Shown in pieces: positions 49,685-58,075 of a stretch of 64,000 nucleotides of DNA. The position numbers and the translations under genes are program-made. Below the pieces are notes generated by a model. The model worked only from the letters and a program-made list of their open reading frames with translations. It did no database searches and was not told the origin of the DNA. This DNA comes from a virus. Taxonomy: Duplodnaviria; Heunggongvirae; Uroviricota; Caudoviricetes. Each line of letters opens with the position of its first letter. The first letter of the stretch is position 1. The DNA lies in IMG/VR virus record IMGVR_UViG_2541047596_000003. The stretch is one strand, 5' to 3'.

Positions 49685-50616
49685 TCTTCGCCATATTTAG
49701 CGTGCGCAACTTTATAGTTTTCTTGCGCCCGATCTAATATTCGTTCGTTTAATATGTTACCGTCTTCGTCAACTAATACGGTAATCGTGCTACATTTGCA
49801 GTTAATTGAATTAGGGGATCTACTCCACCATTCGCGCTGCTCATCTATGGTGTATGTTTTACCGTGCCGCTGCGCGTGCGATAGCCTGGTAGTCGGTGAT
49901 AATGCCGAAATGTGCATTTGCATAGTGCGCAGATTAAATTCTTCTGTCGCCGCTTCTGCCTCATCCATACGCGCTGTGCGTAACGCTGTGCATATTTCAG
50001 TTCGAGCAATACGTTTACACCTGTATAGCGGTAATTGCGTCTCCTGATTCAATGTGCGCGCTATTTCCAGTGGGTTTAAACCACGGGCCATGCCTTCAGT
50101 TAATCGCCGGGCCATATCCTTTTTGATCTGTGCGGTCAGCCCGCGCATTTCCTCAAATACACGGGTACGGACCAGAGCAAGGCGTGTTCGGTAAGTTGTA
50201 CTGGATAACACGGCAGATACATCAGGGTAGGCGCTTGAGTACGTGACAGACTGGTTAGCAAGGTTGGCATGTTCCTGTGCCGTGCCGCGCTGATAGGCCA
50301 CCTTCACGTAATTCTGCCAGAACCAGAAGTTTTCCGGGTCTGTTAGCTCGAATATCTCATCAATCATGTCGCTGGCATCCTCCAGCATGTCGTGAAATTC
50401 ATCCATGTAAATCTGAAAGGTGTATTTCTTATTAACAGCCAGGCTATATTGTATCCTGTCCAATATGGCGATATATGGATCGGCTACTTTTTTCAGGCAG
50501 GATTTGAAACGCTTAATAGCGCCAGACCTCAACCTCCCTGTCATGGTCGGGTCTTCGGTGTTAGATGGCATTATCGCGGCTGGAGGTATTCGCCTGATTA
50601 TTTTCTTCACCTTCAT
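49675..50616 (-). CDS. head morphogenesis protein (minor head protein, Mu F / SPP1 gp7-like)
   Basis: 313 aa downstream of the portal gene. Confidence 0.55.
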   Translation of the reverse strand: MKVKKIIRRIPPAAIMPSNTEDPTMTGRLRSGAIKRFKSCLKKVADPYIAILDRIQYSLAVNKKYTFQIYMDEFHDMLEDASDMIDEIFELTDPENFWFWQNYVKVAYQRGTAQEHANLANQSVTYSSAYPDVSAVLSSTTYRTRLALVRTRVFEEMRGLTAQIKKDMARRLTEGMARGLNPLEIARTLNQETQLPLYRCKRIARTEICTALRTARMDEAEAATEEFNLRTMQMHISALSPTTRLSHAQRHGKTYTIDEQREWWSRSPNSINCKCSTITVLVDEDGNILNERILDRAQENYKVAHAKYGEDWE

Positions 50617-51955
50617 TGTCGTTTTCCTCGTCGTCCAGTTCTACTTCCTGCGTTGGCCCTTCATACCCGGCAGCCTCGCGGATCTCGTCACCGTCGAATA
50701 CTTGTTCACCTGTGGCGAGACATGCCTGATTGATTTGCGCCATTTTGTATGCCGCGTCGAGTAGCTCGGCTTTCGTCATGGCGTTAAGGTCGTCCCACAG
50801 TACCGACACGTCGACTGGCATACTGATAAGGCGGAGATCTGCCATCTTGCGGAATAGTTCCTCAAGCTCGCCTCCTATTTCCTCCCGGCGGGTCATACAG
50901 CGGTTATTGAAGTAGCGGAGGTCTTCGGTTGATGCACGCTCACCCTGCTGATTCCCAACCAGGATACGCGTTGGAATGTCGATACCAGCGGCGGCGGTTT
51001 GCAGGTTGACGTCATAGGTAGCTGATGGATCCGCCACGGCAGTAACCAGCGGGCTAACGGTTGCTCCCTGTAATGCCATCATCACATCATTACCTTTATT
51101 TATATCCTCTGCCGCTTCATTGAATTTTTCGCGTAGCTCTGCAACGTCGCAACCGTATGTTGCAGCCAGGGAACGAAAATCAATCTCTTTGTCGAATGAG
51201 ATAGCCAGTTGACGCGCTGCGTTTTTCAGAAAGGATTCACCGCTACCGCCTTCCACTTTCTCCAGCGATACAAAAGCGTTATAGGACGGCTCAAGGAAAG
51301 CGATGGCATCATCAGAATAATCACCGAAGATAAATATGCGATCTGGATGTATCTTTCTTGCTATGGTCTTACTGTTAATGCGCTCCTTGTATTCCCACCA
51401 TGTCGGCAGGCCATAGCTTTCACTTTCCGGATCTTCTTCGAAGTCCTTCGGTGTAAGAGCACCAGCCCATACAGGGGTAAATTTGGCAATGCCTACACCT
51501 TTCGTCACTGGCTGATCCCACGGCTGGTTATCCCTGACGTGAATTAACAGGCCAGCATAACGACCAATGAGGCGGCGGCGATCGCATTCAGCTATGACGC
51601 GCCAGAAACGATTATCAAATCGTTTTTTGATTTCTCTTTCCCACGGCGTTTCCTTTTTTGCTTTCTCGTCTTCCGTACCTTCGATCAGCGTTGGCCTGGT
51701 GCGCCAGCACGTAGTGATGATCTTCTCAATAGCACCGTGAGCGATACCACCGCGACGATACAGTTTGTATAAATCGGCATAGGTGATTTCTTCTTTGAAT
51801 CCGTATTCACTCCACGCAGCATCACGTTTTGCATCAATACCCATTGAGAATGGGTTAGCGGCTGCATAGCGGGCAAAGGCCGCCTGTCGTTGTGACAAGG
51901 CAGCATTAACCGCCAGTTCTACATTAGATGGCATAATGTTTACTCCTGAATACAT
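50561..51955 (-). CDS. portal protein
   Basis: 464 aa downstream of the large terminase, acidic C-terminal tail. Confidence 0.75.
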   Translation of the reverse strand: MYSGVNIMPSNVELAVNAALSQRQAAFARYAAANPFSMGIDAKRDAAWSEYGFKEEITYADLYKLYRRGGIAHGAIEKIITTCWRTRPTLIEGTEDEKAKKETPWEREIKKRFDNRFWRVIAECDRRRLIGRYAGLLIHVRDNQPWDQPVTKGVGIAKFTPVWAGALTPKDFEEDPESESYGLPTWWEYKERINSKTIARKIHPDRIFIFGDYSDDAIAFLEPSYNAFVSLEKVEGGSGESFLKNAARQLAISFDKEIDFRSLAATYGCDVAELREKFNEAAEDINKGNDVMMALQGATVSPLVTAVADPSATYDVNLQTAAAGIDIPTRILVGNQQGERASTEDLRYFNNRCMTRREEIGGELEELFRKMADLRLISMPVDVSVLWDDLNAMTKAELLDAAYKMAQINQACLATGEQVFDGDEIREAAGYEGPTQEVELDDEENDNEGEENNQANTSSRDNAI

Positions 51956-52082
51956 GTTTACGCGTTGCTACGCGAAAAATAGAAAAACTTGCGGGGGATT
52001 GTGGGACAGATTTTATGTAGCCAATTGAGAATTATTCTTGTTCATCTTCGAAAATTTTTCGAAGTTGATAATAATCAATAAC

Positions 52083-53597
52083 TTAAAATCCGCGCAGGCG
52101 TTTAGGTAACATAAGACCCATCGCCTGTGGTTGGCTTAATTCAGTGATCCCCCATACCATCGCATCCATACGGTCAGGGGATTTTTTAGCGGTAGCTGGC
52201 ACATATTCCATCATTTGATTTTCCAGCGTGTACAGGCTGCCAGTGTGGGCTACCCTACCCTGTGCATACAATGCAGATATTGGTTCGGCGCGGGCAAATT
52301 TACCCTTGCTTGCGTGCACCTTAACAATGCGGCCCTTAAATCCTGCATTGCGTAGTGTGGCCTCTGCCATATCACCACCCTGGTTGGTTTCGATAACCAT
52401 CGCGTCAGCTTCATGGATGTTGTAGGCGTTCATTGCTGCTTGCGCCCAGTCATTAGGTGACATGCGGCCTGAGTAGTCACCGTCTACTGAATACTGAGCA
52501 TTCTTGCCACCACCATAAGCGGAACAGGCTACAATCCCTGTTTCGTCTGACTCATCAGATGATGTTGTCGCCGGGTCGATGGCTATCACCGTGCGAATTT
52601 TCTCCTGCGTTATCTGCATCCTGTGCGCGGCGGTTATCATCGCTTCAGTCCACAATGCGCCCTCTTGATCGAACTTGCGCGGACACTGCATATATTGAGC
52701 TTCGAATGTTCGGCGATGTGATTTAAGAGTTGATTCATCTTTATCACTATGCTTATGCAACCATAGCCAGCCATCCGGCAGGTTGTGAGGAACAGGAATA
52801 GCGAATTTGTTTTCCGGGTACAGATCCCAATAGTCAAGACTGTTGTCGATCTTCACTGGCAGGCAAAGGTGATGCCATTTCTCACCACTACCGCCACGTA
52901 ACAGGTAGCCGGATAAATCATCGTAGTGGATACGCTGCATGATGACGATCACTGGCGTTGTTTGCACAGCCAGGCGCGAAGAAAGCGTGTCGTTGTAATT
53001 GGTATTAACCTGCTTTCGCACCACATCAGAATAAGCGTCAGCTGGTTTCAGGGGATCATCAATAATCATTGCGCCGTTAAACCCAGGTTCCATGTACCCG
53101 GCGCGGAACCCTGTCACCTGTCCAAGCGATGACGTCGCATACACGCCGCCACCCTGAGTGGTCCACCACAGGTTTTTCGCGTTCGAATCGTTGCGCATTT
53201 GCATAGGCCACAATTCCTGATATTGCGGCATCGTGATTATGTTTCTTGTCTCTGAGGAATTAAGCAAGGCGAGTCCGTGTGAATACGATACATGCAGGAA
53301 TCTGGTGCGGGGTTCTATTGCGAGGCAGCGGGCCATCATGTGAATTGTGGCAATCATTGTTTTGCCATAGCCCGGTGGGATGTTGATTATCAACCTGGTG
53401 ATTTCACCATTAATAACTCGTTGTAGCGTATCGGCAATTATTCTGTGATGACGCCCAACCAAAAAGTCCTTGCCAACCTGTTGCTTATAAAAGTAGGAAC
53501 TAAAAAACAAAGGTGCTGATATGTCTTTGGGAGCACAACCTTTAACACACAACCCCCTTAGAACCTCTCTGTCAATCTTTGTCGTCGCAGTCTCCAT
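52083..53597 (-). CDS. terminase large subunit
   Basis: 504 aa; ATPase motifs PPGYGKT and MIIDDPLKP; C-terminal nuclease-like region; overlaps the small subunit end. Confidence 0.85.
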   Translation of the reverse strand: METATTKIDREVLRGLCVKGCAPKDISAPLFFSSYFYKQQVGKDFLVGRHHRIIADTLQRVINGEITRLIINIPPGYGKTMIATIHMMARCLAIEPRTRFLHVSYSHGLALLNSSETRNIITMPQYQELWPMQMRNDSNAKNLWWTTQGGGVYATSSLGQVTGFRAGYMEPGFNGAMIIDDPLKPADAYSDVVRKQVNTNYNDTLSSRLAVQTTPVIVIMQRIHYDDLSGYLLRGGSGEKWHHLCLPVKIDNSLDYWDLYPENKFAIPVPHNLPDGWLWLHKHSDKDESTLKSHRRTFEAQYMQCPRKFDQEGALWTEAMITAAHRMQITQEKIRTVIAIDPATTSSDESDETGIVACSAYGGGKNAQYSVDGDYSGRMSPNDWAQAAMNAYNIHEADAMVIETNQGGDMAEATLRNAGFKGRIVKVHASKGKFARAEPISALYAQGRVAHTGSLYTLENQMMEYVPATAKKSPDRMDAMVWGITELSQPQAMGLMLPKRLRGF

Positions 53598-54087
53598 GAG
53601 TATTGTACTCCTTATTCAGGTTATCGATTATCTCAAGGACAGTAGTCTGATTTACTTCTACCTGGACGGGTGCTTCTTCCTTGTTACCGACGATCTCCTG
53701 TGTGACGCGTTCGCCGTATTTGCGCGGCTGGAGTTTTGCCAGTAGCCACTTGCGTGTCTCAATCATCAGTTGATGGCGGCGCAATTGGTCCTTATCTGCG
53801 TTCTCTGCGGCATCAGCCAGATCGATGATTTCATCAGCCAACACCTCGAAGCCGATCTCCTTCGCGCGTACATACATGTCCGAAAATTCAGGCACATCAC
53901 GAAACCATTTCAGGATTGTTGAACGGGTAGGCATACCAGGCATTTTTGATATTTTGTTAATACTCTGACCGTCCGCTACCAGTTCGCAGATCTCTAACGC
54001 TTTCTCTTCGGTATAACCATGCGGACGGCCCACCTTTTTAGCGGCTGGCTTTTTGTCGTCAGCTTTTGCATTTTTAGTGCGGGCCAT
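53572..54087 (-). CDS. terminase small subunit
   Basis: 171 aa with N-terminal HTH-like region, immediately upstream of the large subunit. Confidence 0.65.
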   Translation of the reverse strand: MARTKNAKADDKKPAAKKVGRPHGYTEEKALEICELVADGQSINKISKMPGMPTRSTILKWFRDVPEFSDMYVRAKEIGFEVLADEIIDLADAAENADKDQLRRHQLMIETRKWLLAKLQPRKYGERVTQEIVGNKEEAPVQVEVNQTTVLEIIDNLNKEYNTHGDCDDKD

Positions 54088-54252
54088 AATTCACCTCTCA
54101 ATATTTATTGATGATATATACGCAAGCAACAAAACTTGCACAGTATGTTAATACTTCCAACCAATCGAATAGCTCCTTCATTGTTTGCCCTTTATGTGAA
54201 GAAAACGATAACGACTAATAACGTGCATATAGCCATGATTAAGAAATCGCCG

Positions 54253-54327
54253 TCAGACATTAATAATAAGCCCCACAATAACAACCGCAGCGATACATAC
54301 GAATAATACGGCTTCGATAGCTTCCAT
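54253..54327 (-). CDS. micro-ORF 7, 24-aa hydrophobic peptide MEAIEAVLFVCIAAVVIVGLIINV
   Basis: ATG 54327, SD AGGTGA, TGA at 54253-54255; single predicted TM. Confidence 0.3.
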   Translation of the reverse strand: MEAIEAVLFVCIAAVVIVGLIINV

Positions 54328-54335
54328 ATATTCAC

Positions 54336-54404
54336 CTATTGAGTCAGCGCGGTCATGGTAAGAACAATCGCAACGATCAGGAAAAAGAAATCAAGCCATT
54401 TCAT
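54336..54404 (-). CDS. micro-ORF 6, 22-aa hydrophobic peptide MKWLDFFFLIVAIVLTMTALTQ
   Basis: ATG 54404 overlaps the upstream stop as ATGA. Confidence 0.3.
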   Translation of the reverse strand: MKWLDFFFLIVAIVLTMTALTQ

Positions 54405-54481
54405 TTTTTAAACTCCCGATAAACATCTACGGCAATGACTACAACTACAGCCACCAGCAATAGCATTTCGTATGCGTTCAT
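54401..54481 (-). CDS. micro-ORF 5, 26-aa hydrophobic peptide MNAYEMLLLVAVVVVIAVDVYREFKK
   Basis: ATG 54481 with SD GAAGGT. Confidence 0.3.
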   Translation of the reverse strand: MNAYEMLLLVAVVVVIAVDVYREFKK

Positions 54482-54492
54482 TGTGGATACCT

Positions 54493-54567
54493 TCAGCTTT
54501 CAATGAATATCATGATCGCCAGCCATACAGCGACGCAGGCAGAAAGGATAATTAGCGGGTCAATCAT
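54493..54567 (-). CDS. micro-ORF 4, 24-aa hydrophobic peptide MIDPLIILSACVAVWLAIMIFIES
   Basis: ATG 54567 with SD GGGGTGA. Confidence 0.3.
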   Translation of the reverse strand: MIDPLIILSACVAVWLAIMIFIES

Positions 54568-54572
54568 ATTTT

Positions 54573-54683
54573 TCACCCCACCAAATACTTGATATATACG
54601 TTTATCAGCGCAACTATAATAGAACCAGCAAGAAACACAGAAACGCCGATTAATCCGGCAATGATGTAAGCGTCCATAATCAT
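54573..54683 (-). CDS. micro-ORF 3, 36-aa hydrophobic peptide MIMDAYIIAGLIGVSVFLAGSIIVALINVYIKYLVG
   Basis: ATG 54683 with SD GGAAG; shares MDAY(I/L) start with micro-ORF 2; translation checked codon by codon. Confidence 0.35.
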   Translation of the reverse strand: MIMDAYIIAGLIGVSVFLAGSIIVALINVYIKYLVG

Positions 54684-54745
54684 TACTTCCACAACAAAAA
54701 CAATATTACAGCCGCCGCCATTCCGATAAATAAATAAGCGTCCAT
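54683..54745 (-). CDS. micro-ORF 2, 20-aa hydrophobic peptide MDAYLFIGMAAAVILFLLWK
   Basis: ATG 54745; stop overlaps the next start. Confidence 0.3.
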   Translation of the reverse strand: MDAYLFIGMAAAVILFLLWK

Positions 54746-54747
54746 AA

Positions 54748-54837
54748 TCAGTCTCGCATAGACATAACTACCAGAAACAGGCAAAGGATGAATCCAGCCG
54801 CCATCCCGCCGACGAAAGTTAGTATTGACGCAATCAT
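54748..54837 (-). CDS. micro-ORF 1, 29-aa hydrophobic peptide MIASILTFVGGMAAGFILCLFLVVMSMRD
   Basis: ATG 54837 with SD GAGG, 5 nt after the HExxH gene stop; translation checked codon by codon. Confidence 0.35.
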   Translation of the reverse strand: MIASILTFVGGMAAGFILCLFLVVMSMRD

Positions 54838-54839
54838 AA

Positions 54840-55382
54840 TCAGCCTCGTTTAAAACTCATAACACGCGGTACAAGCGCTTCTTTTGCTTTCGGCTTACGT
54901 TTACCTTTCTTCGCTGGCTTTTCTTCTTCCTTCGGCTGTTCTGCCTGTTCCAGCGCCTGATCGACGACTTCTGCCGCCTGCATTGCTGCAACCTGTGCTT
55001 CGTTTGATTCTGCTAGGATAGGGAAAAACGCATCGAAGATACGGCCTACCATGTAAGCGTAAGTCTCATTCGCCGGATGGGTAGGATCCGTGGTAGCCAC
55101 GACGCCTACATCACTTAAAACGTGGAATGTAGTGTGGGCGCATTCATGGACCAGCGTTCCCAACTCATTGTTGAATACTGCGATCACGTAGAAGTTACCA
55201 CCATTCTCGCCAGTGCAAGTAAGCGTTAATCCTCCAGCCAACTCGAAATCAGGTTCAATCGGAATTCCTGCCTTTTCGCAAAATTCATAGAACATCTCGC
55301 GGGTCGGGCAAAAGAAAACGGTTGTATGCTCAAAGAGTGGGATCTTAAATTGAGGCAATTTAATGCCTTTAGCCTTAGCCAT
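54840..55382 (-). CDS. HExxH-motif protein, putative zinc metallopeptidase
   Basis: 180 aa with SD AGGAGA; LVHECAHTTFH motif; Lys-rich C-terminal tail. Confidence 0.5.
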   Translation of the reverse strand: MAKAKGIKLPQFKIPLFEHTTVFFCPTREMFYEFCEKAGIPIEPDFELAGGLTLTCTGENGGNFYVIAVFNNELGTLVHECAHTTFHVLSDVGVVATTDPTHPANETYAYMVGRIFDAFFPILAESNEAQVAAMQAAEVVDQALEQAEQPKEEEKPAKKGKRKPKAKEALVPRVMSFKRG

Positions 55383-55661
55383 CAGAATAATCTCCTATTC
55401 TGAAAAATATAACCCCCGCAAAACTCGACACCGCAGGGAGTGAAAACAGTTATAAAACACTGAAAACGGCGCTTCATCAGTACCGTTTCCAGAATTTTAT
55501 AAAATTGGTGAATGGCGCTTTCTTCTACCCAGGTAGCGCCTGACCTGTTAATGGGACTGTTGATCCGGTATTACGTGTTTTTGACTATTCCGCCGTCGCT
55601 CGCGGGAAGGATTGGCCCGGTTATGGCTGGCTGACAGAAACGGCGACACGTCCACGCGCTG

Positions 55662-56150
55662 CTATTCTTTGCGTAAACACTGAGTTTTGATGTAGTCCTG
55701 TAGGCCAGTGATCTGTGCGTCTTTCTCTTTTAGTTGTTCTCTGAGGGATAGATAAGATTGTCTAGCAGTGGCATCAAGCTCGCAGGTGGCTCCATCAATG
55801 CGGCTGGCGGTCGCGGCGGGGTCGGACACTCGCACGGGTATTGCGTTGACGCGCAACCGGATAGTACCGTTATCAATGCCAGTGCGCAGATCGGCAATGT
55901 CAGATCTGATAGCTTTAATCTCATCGTGATACCTCTTATCAAGTTTTGACAGTTCGGCGTTTCGCTCCTTCATCTGCTGAATAGTGTTACTTGCCGTTTT
56001 CAGTGCGCCTTTCGTTACCGTGACTTCTTCCTGTAACCTTGCCGCCTCACCCTGGTAATAACATGTTACGGCGGTCAGTCCGGCAATAATGCAAACAACA
56101 GCGGCGAAAATTAACGCCTTCACCTTGTCCACGTTTCCCCCCATTCGCAA
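55662..56150 (-). CDS. Rz-like i-spanin
   Basis: 162 aa, N-terminal TM plus coiled coil, contains embedded lipoprotein ORF. Confidence 0.75.
55730..55924 (-). CDS. Rz1-like o-spanin lipoprotein (embedded)
   Basis: ATG 55924; [24 protein letters not shown] lipobox then proline-rich body; ORF track start 55942. Confidence 0.6.
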   Translation of the reverse strand: MRLKLSDLTLPICALALITVLSGCASTQYPCECPTPPRPPAALMEPPASLMPLLDNLIYPSENN

Positions 56151-56611
56151 ACGGCATATTCAACCTCGCGGCGGTTTACCAGGCCTTGCCACTTCTTACC
56201 GCCAGCGTATACCCAGCGTTTAAGCTGTGCGCACGCTTCTGATTTCTTGCCGTCATTGAGTAGTTTTAGTAAGGTTGATGTTTTGAAGTTGGTAGCGCCT
56301 ACGTTATAGGCGAATGAATAAAGTGCTGCGCGGGTAAAATCTGATATTTCGACTTTGATATATGGGTCAATCGCTTTTGCGGTCTTGTGTAGATCTTTAT
56401 TTAACAAAGCATCGCATTCTGATTGCGTGTAAGTCTTACCAAGCATGATGTCTTTTCCGACGTGTCCATAACATATCGTGTAAACACCGATGACATCTCT
56501 GTATGGCTTATACTCAACGCCTTCAAGATCTTTTATCATCACCGCCGCAATAGCGATCGCCCCACCAGCCGCCGCCGCAACAATCTTGTTTTTCAGCGAT
56601 TGGCTAATCAT
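56120..56611 (-). CDS. phage lysozyme / endolysin
   Basis: 163 aa paralogous to the Rac-type endolysin at 4445-4942. Confidence 0.85.
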
Positions 56612-56812
56612 TTACTTATTCCCCATTCGCGCGTCGTGTTCCTCTTGCGCCCGCTTGTTCTCCTGTGATTTGAAGTAATAATTAACGGCAAATGTGCCTA
56701 CGGTTGATAAGATACCAACGAAAACAGCGATGTCATTGATGGTTATCGCGCCGAAAAAAGCAGTTACGGCCCCAGTCACATACGCACACGCCTCCCGTAT
56801 TCTGTCGAACAT
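56612..56812 (-). CDS. holin
   Basis: 66 aa with two hydrophobic helices and charged C-terminus, directly upstream of the endolysin, SD GGAGG. Confidence 0.7.
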   Translation of the reverse strand: MFDRIREACAYVTGAVTAFFGAITINDIAVFVGILSTVGTFAVNYYFKSQENKRAQEEHDARMGNK

Positions 56813-56830
56813 AGATTTTCCTCCAACAAA

Positions 56831-56855
56831 GCAAAAACCCGGCGCGGGGCCGGGT
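56831..56855 (-). terminator. rho-independent terminator just upstream of the holin
   Basis: CCCGGC-GCGGG-GCCGGG followed on the minus transcript by UUUUUGCUUU. Confidence 0.5.
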
Positions 56856-56919
56856 AATTACAATTTCGCATTGTTAGGAAATATTTTAATCTGTTTGTTT
56901 GCGCTCTACAAATACGGCG

Positions 56920-57147
56920 TTAACGATAAGGTCCAAGCAAACGAACAAGCCATTCTTTGTATTTGACGGCAACGTGTTTTGGTGCAAAATATCCTTGCAC
57001 TTCCTTACCGCCTCGCCACTCCCTTCTAAATTCGCACTCGTTTTGATACTCCTTTCCGCTTTTACTATCCAGCCAGCAAGCAGGTGAGTAACCTTTTTCA
57101 CTTCCGAACCGATGCCATATTGATGACAGCAAAACCCTTTCTTCCAT
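56920..57147 (-). CDS. hypothetical small protein upstream of the lysis cassette
   Basis: 75 aa ORF at the position where an antiterminator would be expected; no recognisable Q features. Confidence 0.3.
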   Translation of the reverse strand: MEERVLLSSIWHRFGSEKGYSPACWLDSKSGKEYQNECEFRREWRGGKEVQGYFAPKHVAVKYKEWLVRLLGPYR

Positions 57148-57342
57148 ATTACCCCCAACAAATACGGCTTTACTGCTTTCTGTATATCAGGCCATTATCA
57201 AGCAATGTTTGCATGTGTTCGCGATCCATGCCGCTTGATTCCCAATGTGGATCGTCATCAGGTCTTATCATCACCTTATTACCTTTAAGTAAATAGACGA
57301 TGTTAAATACCTTATGCAAATAGATGCCGTCTTCGATCTCGT

Positions 57343-57525
57343 TCACAGGTCGCTAACCTTCACCACGTCGCCGTTATAAAGCATGATTTCAATTATTTCC
57401 CGCGTCATATCCATGAATGGCTCTTTCCACTCGCCACCATCGATACTGATACGAATATCATTACCCTCCACGCGGTAAAACATTTCATCAATGAGGTTCA
57501 CGGCGTATATACCATCTTCAATCAT
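57343..57525 (-). CDS. hypothetical early-region protein
   Basis: 60 aa, coupled array. Confidence 0.4.
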   Translation of the reverse strand: MIEDGIYAVNLIDEMFYRVEGNDIRISIDGGEWKEPFMDMTREIIEIMLYNGDVVKVSDL

Positions 57526-57750
57526 TTAATCGCCCTCTTTAAACATCCTGAACTTAATATCGCCAATCTTGCTCCAATGTCCGTGATTAAACATCGTGAT
57601 AACTTCTTTCGCTGTCACAGGTAAAACCGTTTCATGCCACGGTTCAAACTGGCGTGATCGCATCATTACGTGTTCACCTTCAAGGCGATAATAAGCGCGT
57701 GACACCAATGACTGATAAACGCCGTCATATTGATGGTCGCTATTTCCCAT
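57526..57750 (-). CDS. hypothetical early-region protein
   Basis: 74 aa, coupled array. Confidence 0.4.
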   Translation of the reverse strand: MGNSDHQYDGVYQSLVSRAYYRLEGEHVMMRSRQFEPWHETVLPVTAKEVITMFNHGHWSKIGDIKFRMFKEGD

Positions 57751-57940
57751 TTTTACGCTCCTTAATGGCTCGCTTAATCTGCACTAGCGTTGCATCGAAG
57801 AAAGCGATAAACACCGCTACAGGCCAGAAAGGAATCTCAAGGCCACCACGATCGAGATCGTTATATTTGATGAAACAAGACATCAGGATAGCGCCAGCGA
57901 TATAAAGGAGAAATACAGCAAAGATAAGACATTCAATCAT
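57740..57940 (-). CDS. small membrane protein (two TM helices)
   Basis: 66 aa, MIECLIFAVFLLYIAGAILMSCF... and PFWPVAVFIAFF... Confidence 0.4.
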   Translation of the reverse strand: MIECLIFAVFLLYIAGAILMSCFIKYNDLDRGGLEIPFWPVAVFIAFFDATLVQIKRAIKERKNGK

Positions 57941-58075
57941 CCTCTTTCTCCCCGCCTAAATGTTGATATATTTTTTCAGCATTTTCCCCGCGCTCAAAAC
58001 AATAATGCTCAAACATGCGCCAGTGTTCACTAAGAAACATAACAATAAACTTGTTTACGTATTCGTCATCCATCG

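Follow-up and report, generated by a model that had tools for sequence, protein, structure and literature searches.

An array of nine tiny genes, A to I, predicted to encode single-helix membrane peptides, lies in the 64,000-nucleotide (nt) Caudoviricetes sequence IMGVR_UViG_2541047596_000003 of IMG/VR, hereafter called the window. The array occupies a 752-nt gap (54088-54839, minus strand) between a gene for a 180-amino-acid (aa) protein with an HExxH motif and the gene for the terminase small subunit (terS). The window is a prophage of the mEp021 group ("mEpimmI") in Escherichia coli strain M1/5. The 2-kb region around the array is 100% identical to the chromosome of this strain (NZ_CP053296.1) and shows 86-91% DNA identity to the temperate phages MagusPhagus, mEp010, mEp013, mEp021, mEp044, mEp515, and mEp554; this level of identity extends from the lysis genes to terS, with the same gene order. 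The mEpimmI phages are Nus-dependent non-lambdoid gut coliphages, and their prevalence in human gut samples is reported to equal that of lambdoid phages (PMC11893012). Read along the minus strand, the order is a terminator-like hairpin, holin, endolysin, Rz, a 280-nt spacer, the HExxH protein, the 752-nt gap, terS, terL, and portal. The G+C content of the gap is 40%, against 47% in its flanks. RefSeq has no annotation anywhere in this gap, nor has the mEp021 record. Records based on PHANOTATE (MagusPhagus, mEp010) contain some small open reading frames (ORFs) there, several of them longer than the tiny ORFs described here and none of them named. The nine genes are the following.

Gene A, 54748-54837, minus strand: 29 aa, predicted single-pass membrane peptide, MIASILTFVGGMAAGFILCLFLVVMSMRD
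Gene B, 54683-54745, minus strand: 20 aa, MDAYLFIGMAAAVILFLLWK
Gene C, 54573-54677, minus strand: 34 aa from its MDAY start, MDAYIIAGLIGVSVFLAGSIIVALINVYIKYLVG
Gene D, 54493-54567, minus strand: 24 aa, MIDPLIILSACVAVWLAIMIFIES
Gene E, 54401-54481, minus strand: 26 aa, MNAYEMLLLVAVVVVIAVDVYREFKK
Gene F, 54336-54404, minus strand: 22 aa, MKWLDFFFLIVAIVLTMTALTQ
Gene G, 54253-54327, minus strand: 24 aa, MEAIEAVLFVCIAAVVIVGLIINV
Gene H, 54192-54260, minus strand: 22 aa, beginning MSDGDF, MSDGDFLIMAICTLLVVIVFFT; new in this analysis
Gene I, 54098-54181, minus strand: 27 aa, beginning MKELFDW, MKELFDWLEVLTYCASFVACVYIINKY; new in this analysis

The initial annotation of the window had listed seven minus-strand ORFs here and stated that no ORF of 60 aa or more exists on either strand. 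The latter is correct over the whole of 54088-54839. The seven ORFs, A to G, were all recovered at the same positions, but H and I bring the array to nine. Together they span 54098-54837 and fill the whole gap: nine non-overlapping minus-strand ORFs with an ATG start, a length of at least 20 aa, and transmembrane-grade hydropathy cover 94% of it, and the plus strand holds none. Among 2000 dinucleotide-preserving shuffles, the mean number of such ORFs was 0.76, with a maximum of 4 and a maximal coverage of 67%. In the entire 64-kb window, eight of the ten tiny hydrophobic ORFs lying outside long ORFs are located in the gap. The maximal Kyte-Doolittle mean over 15 residues is 2.2-3.4 for the nine peptides, all of which thus have the hydropathy of a membrane-spanning stretch. 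Codon periodicity is strong, with T at 54% of second positions and G at 38% of first positions.

The genes are tightly packed. Gene A starts 2 nt past the stop codon of the HExxH gene, the successive junctions from A to I measure +2, +5, +5, +11, -4, +8, -8, and +10 nt, and gene I ends 10 nt before the ATG of terS. Overlapping stop and start codons, previously noted for several of the ORFs, are found between E and F (ATGA) and between G and H (8 nt). They also occur between B and C (1 nt) if C starts at an alternative upstream ATG at 54683, which would give a product of 36 aa; the other junctions are gaps of 2-11 nt. Similarly, the Shine-Dalgarno sequences ascribed to most of the ORFs pair well with the anti-Shine-Dalgarno sequence for A, D, F, and G (-6.4 to -9.8 kcal/mol, the strongest being that of D at -9.8 kcal/mol), but weakly for B, C, E, H, and I (-3.0 to -4.7 kcal/mol). 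The Shine-Dalgarno pairing of terS is strong (-10.1 kcal/mol), and its site lies partly inside the 3' end of gene I. In the window, H can be extended upstream to a 47-aa ORF initiated at GTG and overlapping G. We rejected this form and place the start of H at the ATG, because stop codons close the extension in other alleles. The MDAY start shared by two of the peptides proved to be part of a 29-nt direct repeat, 79% identical, at the starts of B and C.

For comparison, we used 47 IMG/VR loci fetched via the HExxH protein together with GenBank and metagenome loci, amounting to 43 distinct loci. Pooled over sequence pairs that are not independent, the ratio of nonsynonymous to synonymous change (pN/pS) is 0.24 in the proposed frames versus 0.93 and 1.48 in the two shifted frames. 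Each of the 14 peptide families that vary has a pN/pS between 0.07 and 0.43, with pS around 0.2-0.4. For the genes of the window, the values are 0.31 for A, 0.23 for C, 0.27 for D (37 loci), 0.24 for E (40 loci), 0.12 for F, 0.37 for G, 0.30 for H, and 0.07 for I, the lowest of the families (pS 0.27). Gene B was found in five loci, all identical, and its ratio is not computable. Summed over families, variable sites at codon positions 1, 2, and 3 number 116, 72, and 225. ORF lengths across relatives are either invariant, as for D, or changed by multiples of three, as for C (96-117 nt, and one call of 183 nt). These comparisons show the proposed frames to be under purifying selection. The initial annotation had pointed to homologous prophages as a check and to unconserved frames as the outcome that would speak against coding; the frames are conserved and synonymous change is in excess, as expected of coding ORFs. 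As far as comparative sequence can go, the nine ORFs are established as real protein-coding genes.

Among the 43 distinct loci, the interval separating the HExxH gene from terS is 318-1154 nt long and contains, on the coding strand, 3-13 tiny hydrophobic ORFs. Their products sort into about 20 families, which occur in 38 combinations following the collinear order (O/A/B/S)-C-N-Q-D-(J/R)-T-K-E-L-F-G-H-L'-M-(I/P). C, D, E, and F were each called in 34-40 loci out of 43. The last position was assigned to I or its paralog P in 40; two more loci have I with a variant or extended start, and in locus L049 the copy is fused. The first ORF invariably starts 2 nt past the HExxH stop codon, and the last one usually ends 10 nt before terS, except in a few loci where a soluble 47-aa gene is inserted at this junction. 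This optional acidic gene (47-48 aa, beginning MVSNEELKMADEIRK), located between the last tiny ORF and terS, was seen in about five relatives (L005, 4294-4440; L009, L026, L029, and L042) and is absent from the window.

Duplication, which the shared MDAY start had suggested, is supported by five pairs of families that score as paralogs against composition-preserving shuffles: E-N (z 10.4), J-R (z 9.0), B-O (z 7.5), F-L (z 6-7), and I-P (z 10.5). Gene B itself looks like a chimera, in which a C-type start is joined to an O-family core. Such an origin agrees with the recurring junction CGAGRCTGATTATG and with the 29-nt repeat found where B and C start. We also considered a tandem repeat array and rejected it: Tandem Repeats Finder detected none, the only repeats are short ones at junctions, and the families are diverged paralogs. 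The nearest non-identical relative (L004, 3544-4294) shows 49 differences from the window, all in the E-I half, and the A-D half (about 390 nt) is identical; the single indel is located in the H-I spacer. The two sequences therefore form a recombination mosaic, which indicates a recent recombination breakpoint inside the array. Decayed copies were observed as well: J is frameshifted in L023, H was not called in L027, L029, and L030, and a remnant of H persists in L011. The loci thus show that the families turn over gene by gene, through gain, loss, duplication, and swapping, while their order is kept.

Outside the mEp021 group, a tblastn search with the concatenated peptides found only gene A, in about 90 records of rV5/FV3-like Vequintaviruses. 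By blastn, 91 Vequintavirus-type records carry gene A at 90-96% DNA identity, mostly without annotation at that position. The allele of A in L012 and bas55_0158 of phage JeffSchatz are 94.4% identical over all 90 nt, with five differences of which three are synonymous; the flanks are 27-37% identical, and the best local alignment extends from -11 to +95 relative to the ORF. This abrupt loss of similarity at the gene ends shows a gene-sized horizontal transfer (90 nt) between the mEp021 group and virulent Vequintaviruses, which are myoviruses of the same host species. In the latter, gene A stands alone and its neighbors are unrelated small genes. This argues that a single peptide can be a functional unit independent of the array, of the HExxH gene, and of the lysis proteins of this phage. 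The Vequintavirus copy of gene A is also carried by 11 records labeled "Campylobacter phage" (MG065684.1, MG065654.1, and others) and by an E. coli "plasmid" record of 137.5 kb (CP057073.1). These look like Vequintavirus genomes under other labels.

In all collections scanned, the array as such is restricted to the mEp021 group. Of 5426 complete E. coli genomes, 35 contain it. No array turned up when one genome per species was scanned with terS as the anchor, and scans of IMG/VR anchored on terS and on gene I returned only mEp021-group contigs and one unrelated contig of low G+C content that lacks the array; within IMG/VR, gene I is confined to mEp021-group contigs. A tblastn search against plasmids retrieved only a 137.5-kb record resembling a Vequintavirus genome. 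In a large protein collection of 5.8 billion clusters, which accepts queries of at least 40 aa and was therefore searched with the concatenated peptides, these were absent save for three read-through proteins. The latter (P0121-P0123, 139-166 aa, from ENA contigs of less than 900 bp) result from reading TGA as Trp across the array and are gene-calling artefacts. None of the nine peptides matches Pfam or PHROG at E <= 0.01, and none matches PADLOC or NCBIfam. More specifically, no holin family model of Pfam or PHROG and no type I toxin family (Hok, Ldr, Ibs, TisB, ShoB, Zor, and others) of NCBIfam or Pfam matched them. An Rfam scan of 52000-58000 by E-value gave two sub-threshold chance matches only, and no structured RNA.

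The genes and elements flanking the array are listed below.

Terminase small subunit, Sf6 type, 53572-54087, minus strand: downstream neighbor, PF20901 (E 1.4e-36)
HExxH-motif protein, 180 aa with a Lys-rich tail, 54840-55382, minus strand: upstream neighbor, phrog_1365 (unknown function)
Non-coding Rz-HExxH spacer, about 280 nt, 55383-55661, minus strand: hairpin followed by a U-run near its 3' end, TERM_6 in the mEp021 record
Rz, 55662-56132, minus strand: lysis cassette (whole cassette 55662-56812)
Endolysin, 56120-56611, minus strand: lysis cassette, Gly/Ala-rich N-terminus resembling a signal-arrest-release (SAR) domain
Holin, 66 aa, 56612-56812, minus strand: lysis cassette, two hydrophobic stretches
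Terminator-like hairpin upstream of the holin gene, 56837-56855, minus strand: TERM_5 at the matching position of the mEp021 record

The lysis products of relatives match PF16080, PF00959, and PF03245, the holin corresponding to PF16080. The holin is near-invariant (median identity 98.5%), and one of its alleles is paired with gaps of 318-1126 nt containing 3 to 12 array genes. The content of the array is thus independent of the holin allele, and the two are not adjacent, the 280-nt spacer and the HExxH gene lying between them. This spacer is at least 95% identical in most columns over 37 distinct sequences, more conserved than the flanking genes, and is a candidate regulatory or pac element.

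The HExxH protein has no Pfam family and no significant PDB match by sequence, and its AlphaFold2 model (predicted local distance difference test, pLDDT, 76) has no Foldseek match in PDB; one source names a relative "PolyVal metallopeptidase". Homologs of its N-terminal 125 residues, with the HExxH motif conserved, occupy the position between Rz and terS in P22-like phages (ST64T orf-129 and epsilon34 gp70; L104, 2501-2890). Further homologs are found near sieA in P22 and as hkcC in HK620. In ST64T, orf-129 is located between Rz and terS and is followed by a soluble 134-aa gene, with no array of tiny ORFs. An obligate system in which the HExxH protein processes the peptides was considered and rejected as unsupported, as P22-like phages carry the homolog without the peptides. 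The proposal that the tiny genes form one operon with the HExxH gene holds in so far as they are co-oriented, tightly packed, and probably part of the same transcription unit, which includes terS, with no promoter-like site on the coding strand and no convincing terminator-like site inside; the link is positional and not obligate, as the P22-like phages show.

Two other genes of the window deserve mention. RefSeq names a 457-aa gene at about 50561-51934 (minus strand) "anti-CBASS protein Acb1 family protein". In relatives, the gene at this position encodes a product matching PF06381 (Phage_portal_3), and the Acb1 name is probably misleading. Another candidate small membrane protein of this prophage is encoded by a 66-aa ORF (57740-57940, minus strand, beginning MIECLIFAVFLLYIAGAILMSCF) that has two hydrophobic stretches and sits upstream of the lysis cassette amid small accessory genes.

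A scan for sigma-70 consensus promoters revealed no minus-strand promoter-like site in or near the array. As the flanking genes are co-oriented, the array is probably cotranscribed, in lytic growth, with the lysis, HExxH, and terminase genes. Rightward transcription in the mEpimmI group depends on Gp17 antitermination (PMC11893012). Genes A, D, F, and G would be translated from their own Shine-Dalgarno sites, the others probably by termination-reinitiation at the overlapping or close stop/start junctions. The flanks of the hydrophobic stretch are asymmetrically charged over the 20 families, with a mean of -1.04 on the N-terminal side (net negative in 15 of 20) and of +0.67, neutral to basic, on the C-terminal side. 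Given the positive-inside rule, an acidic N-flank and a neutral to basic C-flank predict a uniform N-out/C-in topology in the inner membrane. In both hydrophobic stretch and charge asymmetry, the peptides thus have the predicted features of single-pass inner-membrane microproteins. Insertion would proceed like that of small phage coat proteins, through YidC and the membrane potential; how small proteins of phages become inserted is discussed in PMC12648545.

We propose that the array is a translationally coupled cassette of the late operon and that its single-pass inner-membrane microproteins act separately, as accessory modulators of membrane proteins. The temperate coliphages of the mEp021 group would have a hypervariable accessory cassette specific to them, of which the array is the form in this prophage. 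Taken as a whole, we give this proposal a probability of roughly 0.55. Each peptide on its own might bind a larger membrane protein through helix-helix contacts, by analogy with AcrZ, MgrB, and MgtS, which is the weakest step. The array would then be an interchangeable toolbox and not one machine. The targets would more likely be host inner-membrane proteins, such as transport or DNA-entry channels and membrane-embedded defense or stress effectors, than the phage's own holin. We favor host targets because gene A works in a different phage, the content of the array is uncoupled from the holin allele, and its turnover has the look of an accessory locus or an arms race.

Several points weigh against this proposal. 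Because the peptides match no characterized family, their function is argued by analogy. Their translation, their membrane insertion, and any phenotype are predictions. The site beside the holin/SAR-like endolysin cassette fits a role in lysis equally well. As the promoter scan was limited to the sigma-70 consensus, the genes may also be expressed in the lysogen. One weak terminator-like hairpin lies inside gene C (54660-54644), although terminator-like sites are not above shuffle expectation. A few copies have been frameshifted or have lost their start, and individual members are therefore dispensable. Finally, besides the non-independence of the pairs behind the pooled pN/pS, the signal could in part reflect selection for generic hydrophobicity, which would not, however, account for the values of 0.07-0.14 in families I, F, K, and N.

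The peptides might instead tune lysis, as antiholin-like or holin-assisting helices that bind the transmembrane segments of the holin or shift the membrane potential, thereby timing the release of the SAR-like endolysin. SAR-endolysin/holin systems are sensitive to membrane energization. The array has the orientation of the lysis cassette and lies about 0.8 kb downstream of it; in this cassette, the 66-aa holin has two hydrophobic stretches and the N-terminus of the endolysin is SAR-like. Other phages also possess several holin-like genes, such as LydA/LydB/LydC/LydD in P1 (PMC9025707) and groups of up to four in Gordonia phages (PMC9671378). However, the peptides, at 20-34 aa, are less than half the size of the 66-aa holin, their mean C-flank charge is only +0.67, and they match no holin family model. 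Known holins are about 60 aa or longer and have at least one transmembrane domain and a charged cytoplasmic C-terminal tail. Moreover, the conserved 280-nt spacer and the HExxH gene separate the array from the lysis genes, 3 to 12 array genes are found behind one allele of a holin with a median identity of 98.5%, and gene A occurs alone among unrelated small genes in Vequintaviruses. We regard a role in lysis timing as rather unlikely, but as a serious alternative. The same observations bear on the resemblance to small membrane toxins or holin/antiholin peptides seen in the initial annotation, which turned out to be one of shape only. Membrane-damaging helices of the type I toxin or viroporin kind, serving host shut-off, abortive killing, or prophage addiction, are improbable. 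In size and hydrophobicity, the peptides do resemble Ibs, TisB, Ldr, and ShoB (PMC8309996, PMC12648545), type I toxins are known in prophages (PMC12648545), and three plus-strand promoter-like sites lie inside the array. These sites, however, match only 9 of 12 consensus positions, and the total of six found compares with 7.8 expected by shuffle. No Pfam or NCBIfam model of any kind matches the peptides, and the genes, 2-11 nt apart or overlapping by up to 8 nt, have no individual promoters or leaders and no minus-strand promoter-like site. With such tight packing, there is no space for antisense control of each gene, the defining feature of type I systems. A late operon encoding nine to thirteen toxins would also duplicate the job of the holin.

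Two further explanations would make the peptides themselves irrelevant. Translation may matter without useful products, the ORFs keeping ribosomes on the mRNA against Rho-dependent polarity and feeding terS, or being young proto-genes in an AT-rich spacer. It is true that the ORFs, with coupled junctions, occupy exactly the space between the HExxH stop codon and the Shine-Dalgarno sequence of terS, that the region has a G+C content of 40% against 47% in the flanks, and that individual copies can decay. Hydrophobic intergenic small ORFs (smORFs) are also common in Enterobacteriaceae, partly as a result of AT-rich composition (PMC11188072). Nevertheless, amino acids are conserved beyond composition, with pN/pS of 0.07-0.43 against values near or above 1 in the shifted frames, and gene A has been kept as an isolated gene in another phage lineage. 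In addition, three genes in 318 nt serve as well as thirteen in 1154 nt, so that neither length nor a ribosome relay is what is conserved. We consider this explanation very unlikely. Still less credible is a non-coding cos/pac site, or a regulatory DNA or RNA element, in which the ORFs would be incidental, even though the region is directly upstream of the terminase genes and neither RefSeq nor the mEp021 record annotates a gene in it. A length of 318-1154 nt and 38 architectures cannot be reconciled with a fixed site of recognition, substitutions cluster at synonymous positions, and there is no Rfam match and no tandem repeat. The terS is of the Sf6 type (PF20901), and terminases of this type use headful packaging, with a pac site within or close to terS. 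If any non-coding block in the vicinity is truly conserved, it is the Rz-HExxH spacer. The initial annotation had named a cos or packaging site as the finding that would overturn the coding interpretation; the content of the array is too variable for either cos or pac.

If the array is indeed an accessory cassette of membrane modulators, a more speculative extension is that it forms a combinatorial library for counter-defense or host takeover, in which each helix would neutralize a different host inner-membrane protein. Possible targets would include a membrane-embedded abortive-infection effector or the DNA-entry channel of competing phages. We advance both the library and these examples tentatively, as rather unlikely in their specific form. 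Were the library real, the gain, loss, and duplication of its genes and their transfer, to Vequintaviruses among others, would record an arms race conducted with single transmembrane helices. The array would then represent a new class of phage anti-defense or exclusion locus, invisible to current gene callers and protein databases.

Small hydrophobic ORFs in phages are unsurprising in themselves. Small hydrophobic microproteins of phages and enterobacteria are already known (PMC11188072, PMC12648545), as are groups of up to four holin-like genes in actinophages (PMC9671378). In the literature searched, we found no description of a dense, collinear, and combinatorially variable run of up to 13 packed single-helix genes of 20-47 codons; the paper defining the mEpimmI group neither mentions the array nor counts it in its pangenome analysis (PMC11893012). 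The array thus exposes an annotation blind spot, as 0.3-1.2 kb of a late operon is blank in RefSeq and in the record of the type phage. With up to 13 genes per genome drawn from about 20 families, it is possibly one of the most variable loci of the group. Its natural variants with 3 to 13 genes offer a compact test bed for phage membrane microproteins, and gene A is shared with Vequintaviruses of the BASEL collection, phages that are amenable to engineering. Should host membrane proteins be their targets, the peptides would supply minimal transmembrane inhibitors; should they tune lysis, holin/SAR-endolysin lysis would gain a new layer of regulation.

In gene architecture, the closest known system is the psm-alpha operon of Staphylococcus aureus, in which four tandem ORFs of about 21 codons are carried by one transcript and encode amphipathic secreted cytolysins with a dedicated exporter. 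The array peptides, in contrast, are uniformly hydrophobic transmembrane helices, and no exporter is encoded nearby. Coat proteins of the Pf3/M13 type combine a short acidic N-tail, one helix, and a basic C-terminus, and adopt an N-out/C-in orientation by means of YidC and the membrane potential. They are virion components of filamentous phages, whereas the array peptides have no sequence similarity to them and give no hint of a structural role. Type I toxins are about 19-50 aa long, and some occur in tandem copies. Ibs, Ldr, TisB, ShoB, and Hok are likewise hydrophobic helices, some of them multi-copy and some on prophages (PMC8309996). They differ in having their own promoter, a structured leader, and an antisense RNA, whereas the array genes are packed, with no antisense signal above chance and no family match. 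The LydA/LydB/LydC/LydD genes of P1, which has a SAR endolysin (PMC9025707), and the transmembrane-protein genes of Gordonia phages (PMC9671378) resemble the array in that several small membrane genes lie near the endolysin and vary between related phages. However, the Gordonia proteins have one to four helices and are encoded in groups of up to four that abut the lysin genes (PMC9671378); the array peptides are 20-34 aa long, number up to 13, and are set apart by a spacer and a gene. Like the array peptides, AcrZ, MgrB, MgtS, and CydX of E. coli are at most 50 aa long with about one transmembrane helix, have been missed by annotation, and bind a larger membrane protein (PMC12648545), as we propose for the array. 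These are single chromosomal genes with their own regulation and no sequence similarity to the array, in which 9-13 unrelated or paralogous peptides are encoded head-to-tail in a phage late operon. Families of small genes have reportedly been predicted in phage genomes by Fremin and colleagues in 2022. The intergenic hydrophobic smORF families of Enterobacteriaceae are similar to the array genes in being conserved, under purifying selection, located in "intergenic" DNA, and often co-directed with their neighbors (PMC11188072). Such surveys, however, describe scattered single smORFs, whereas here they form a dense, collinear, and variable array.

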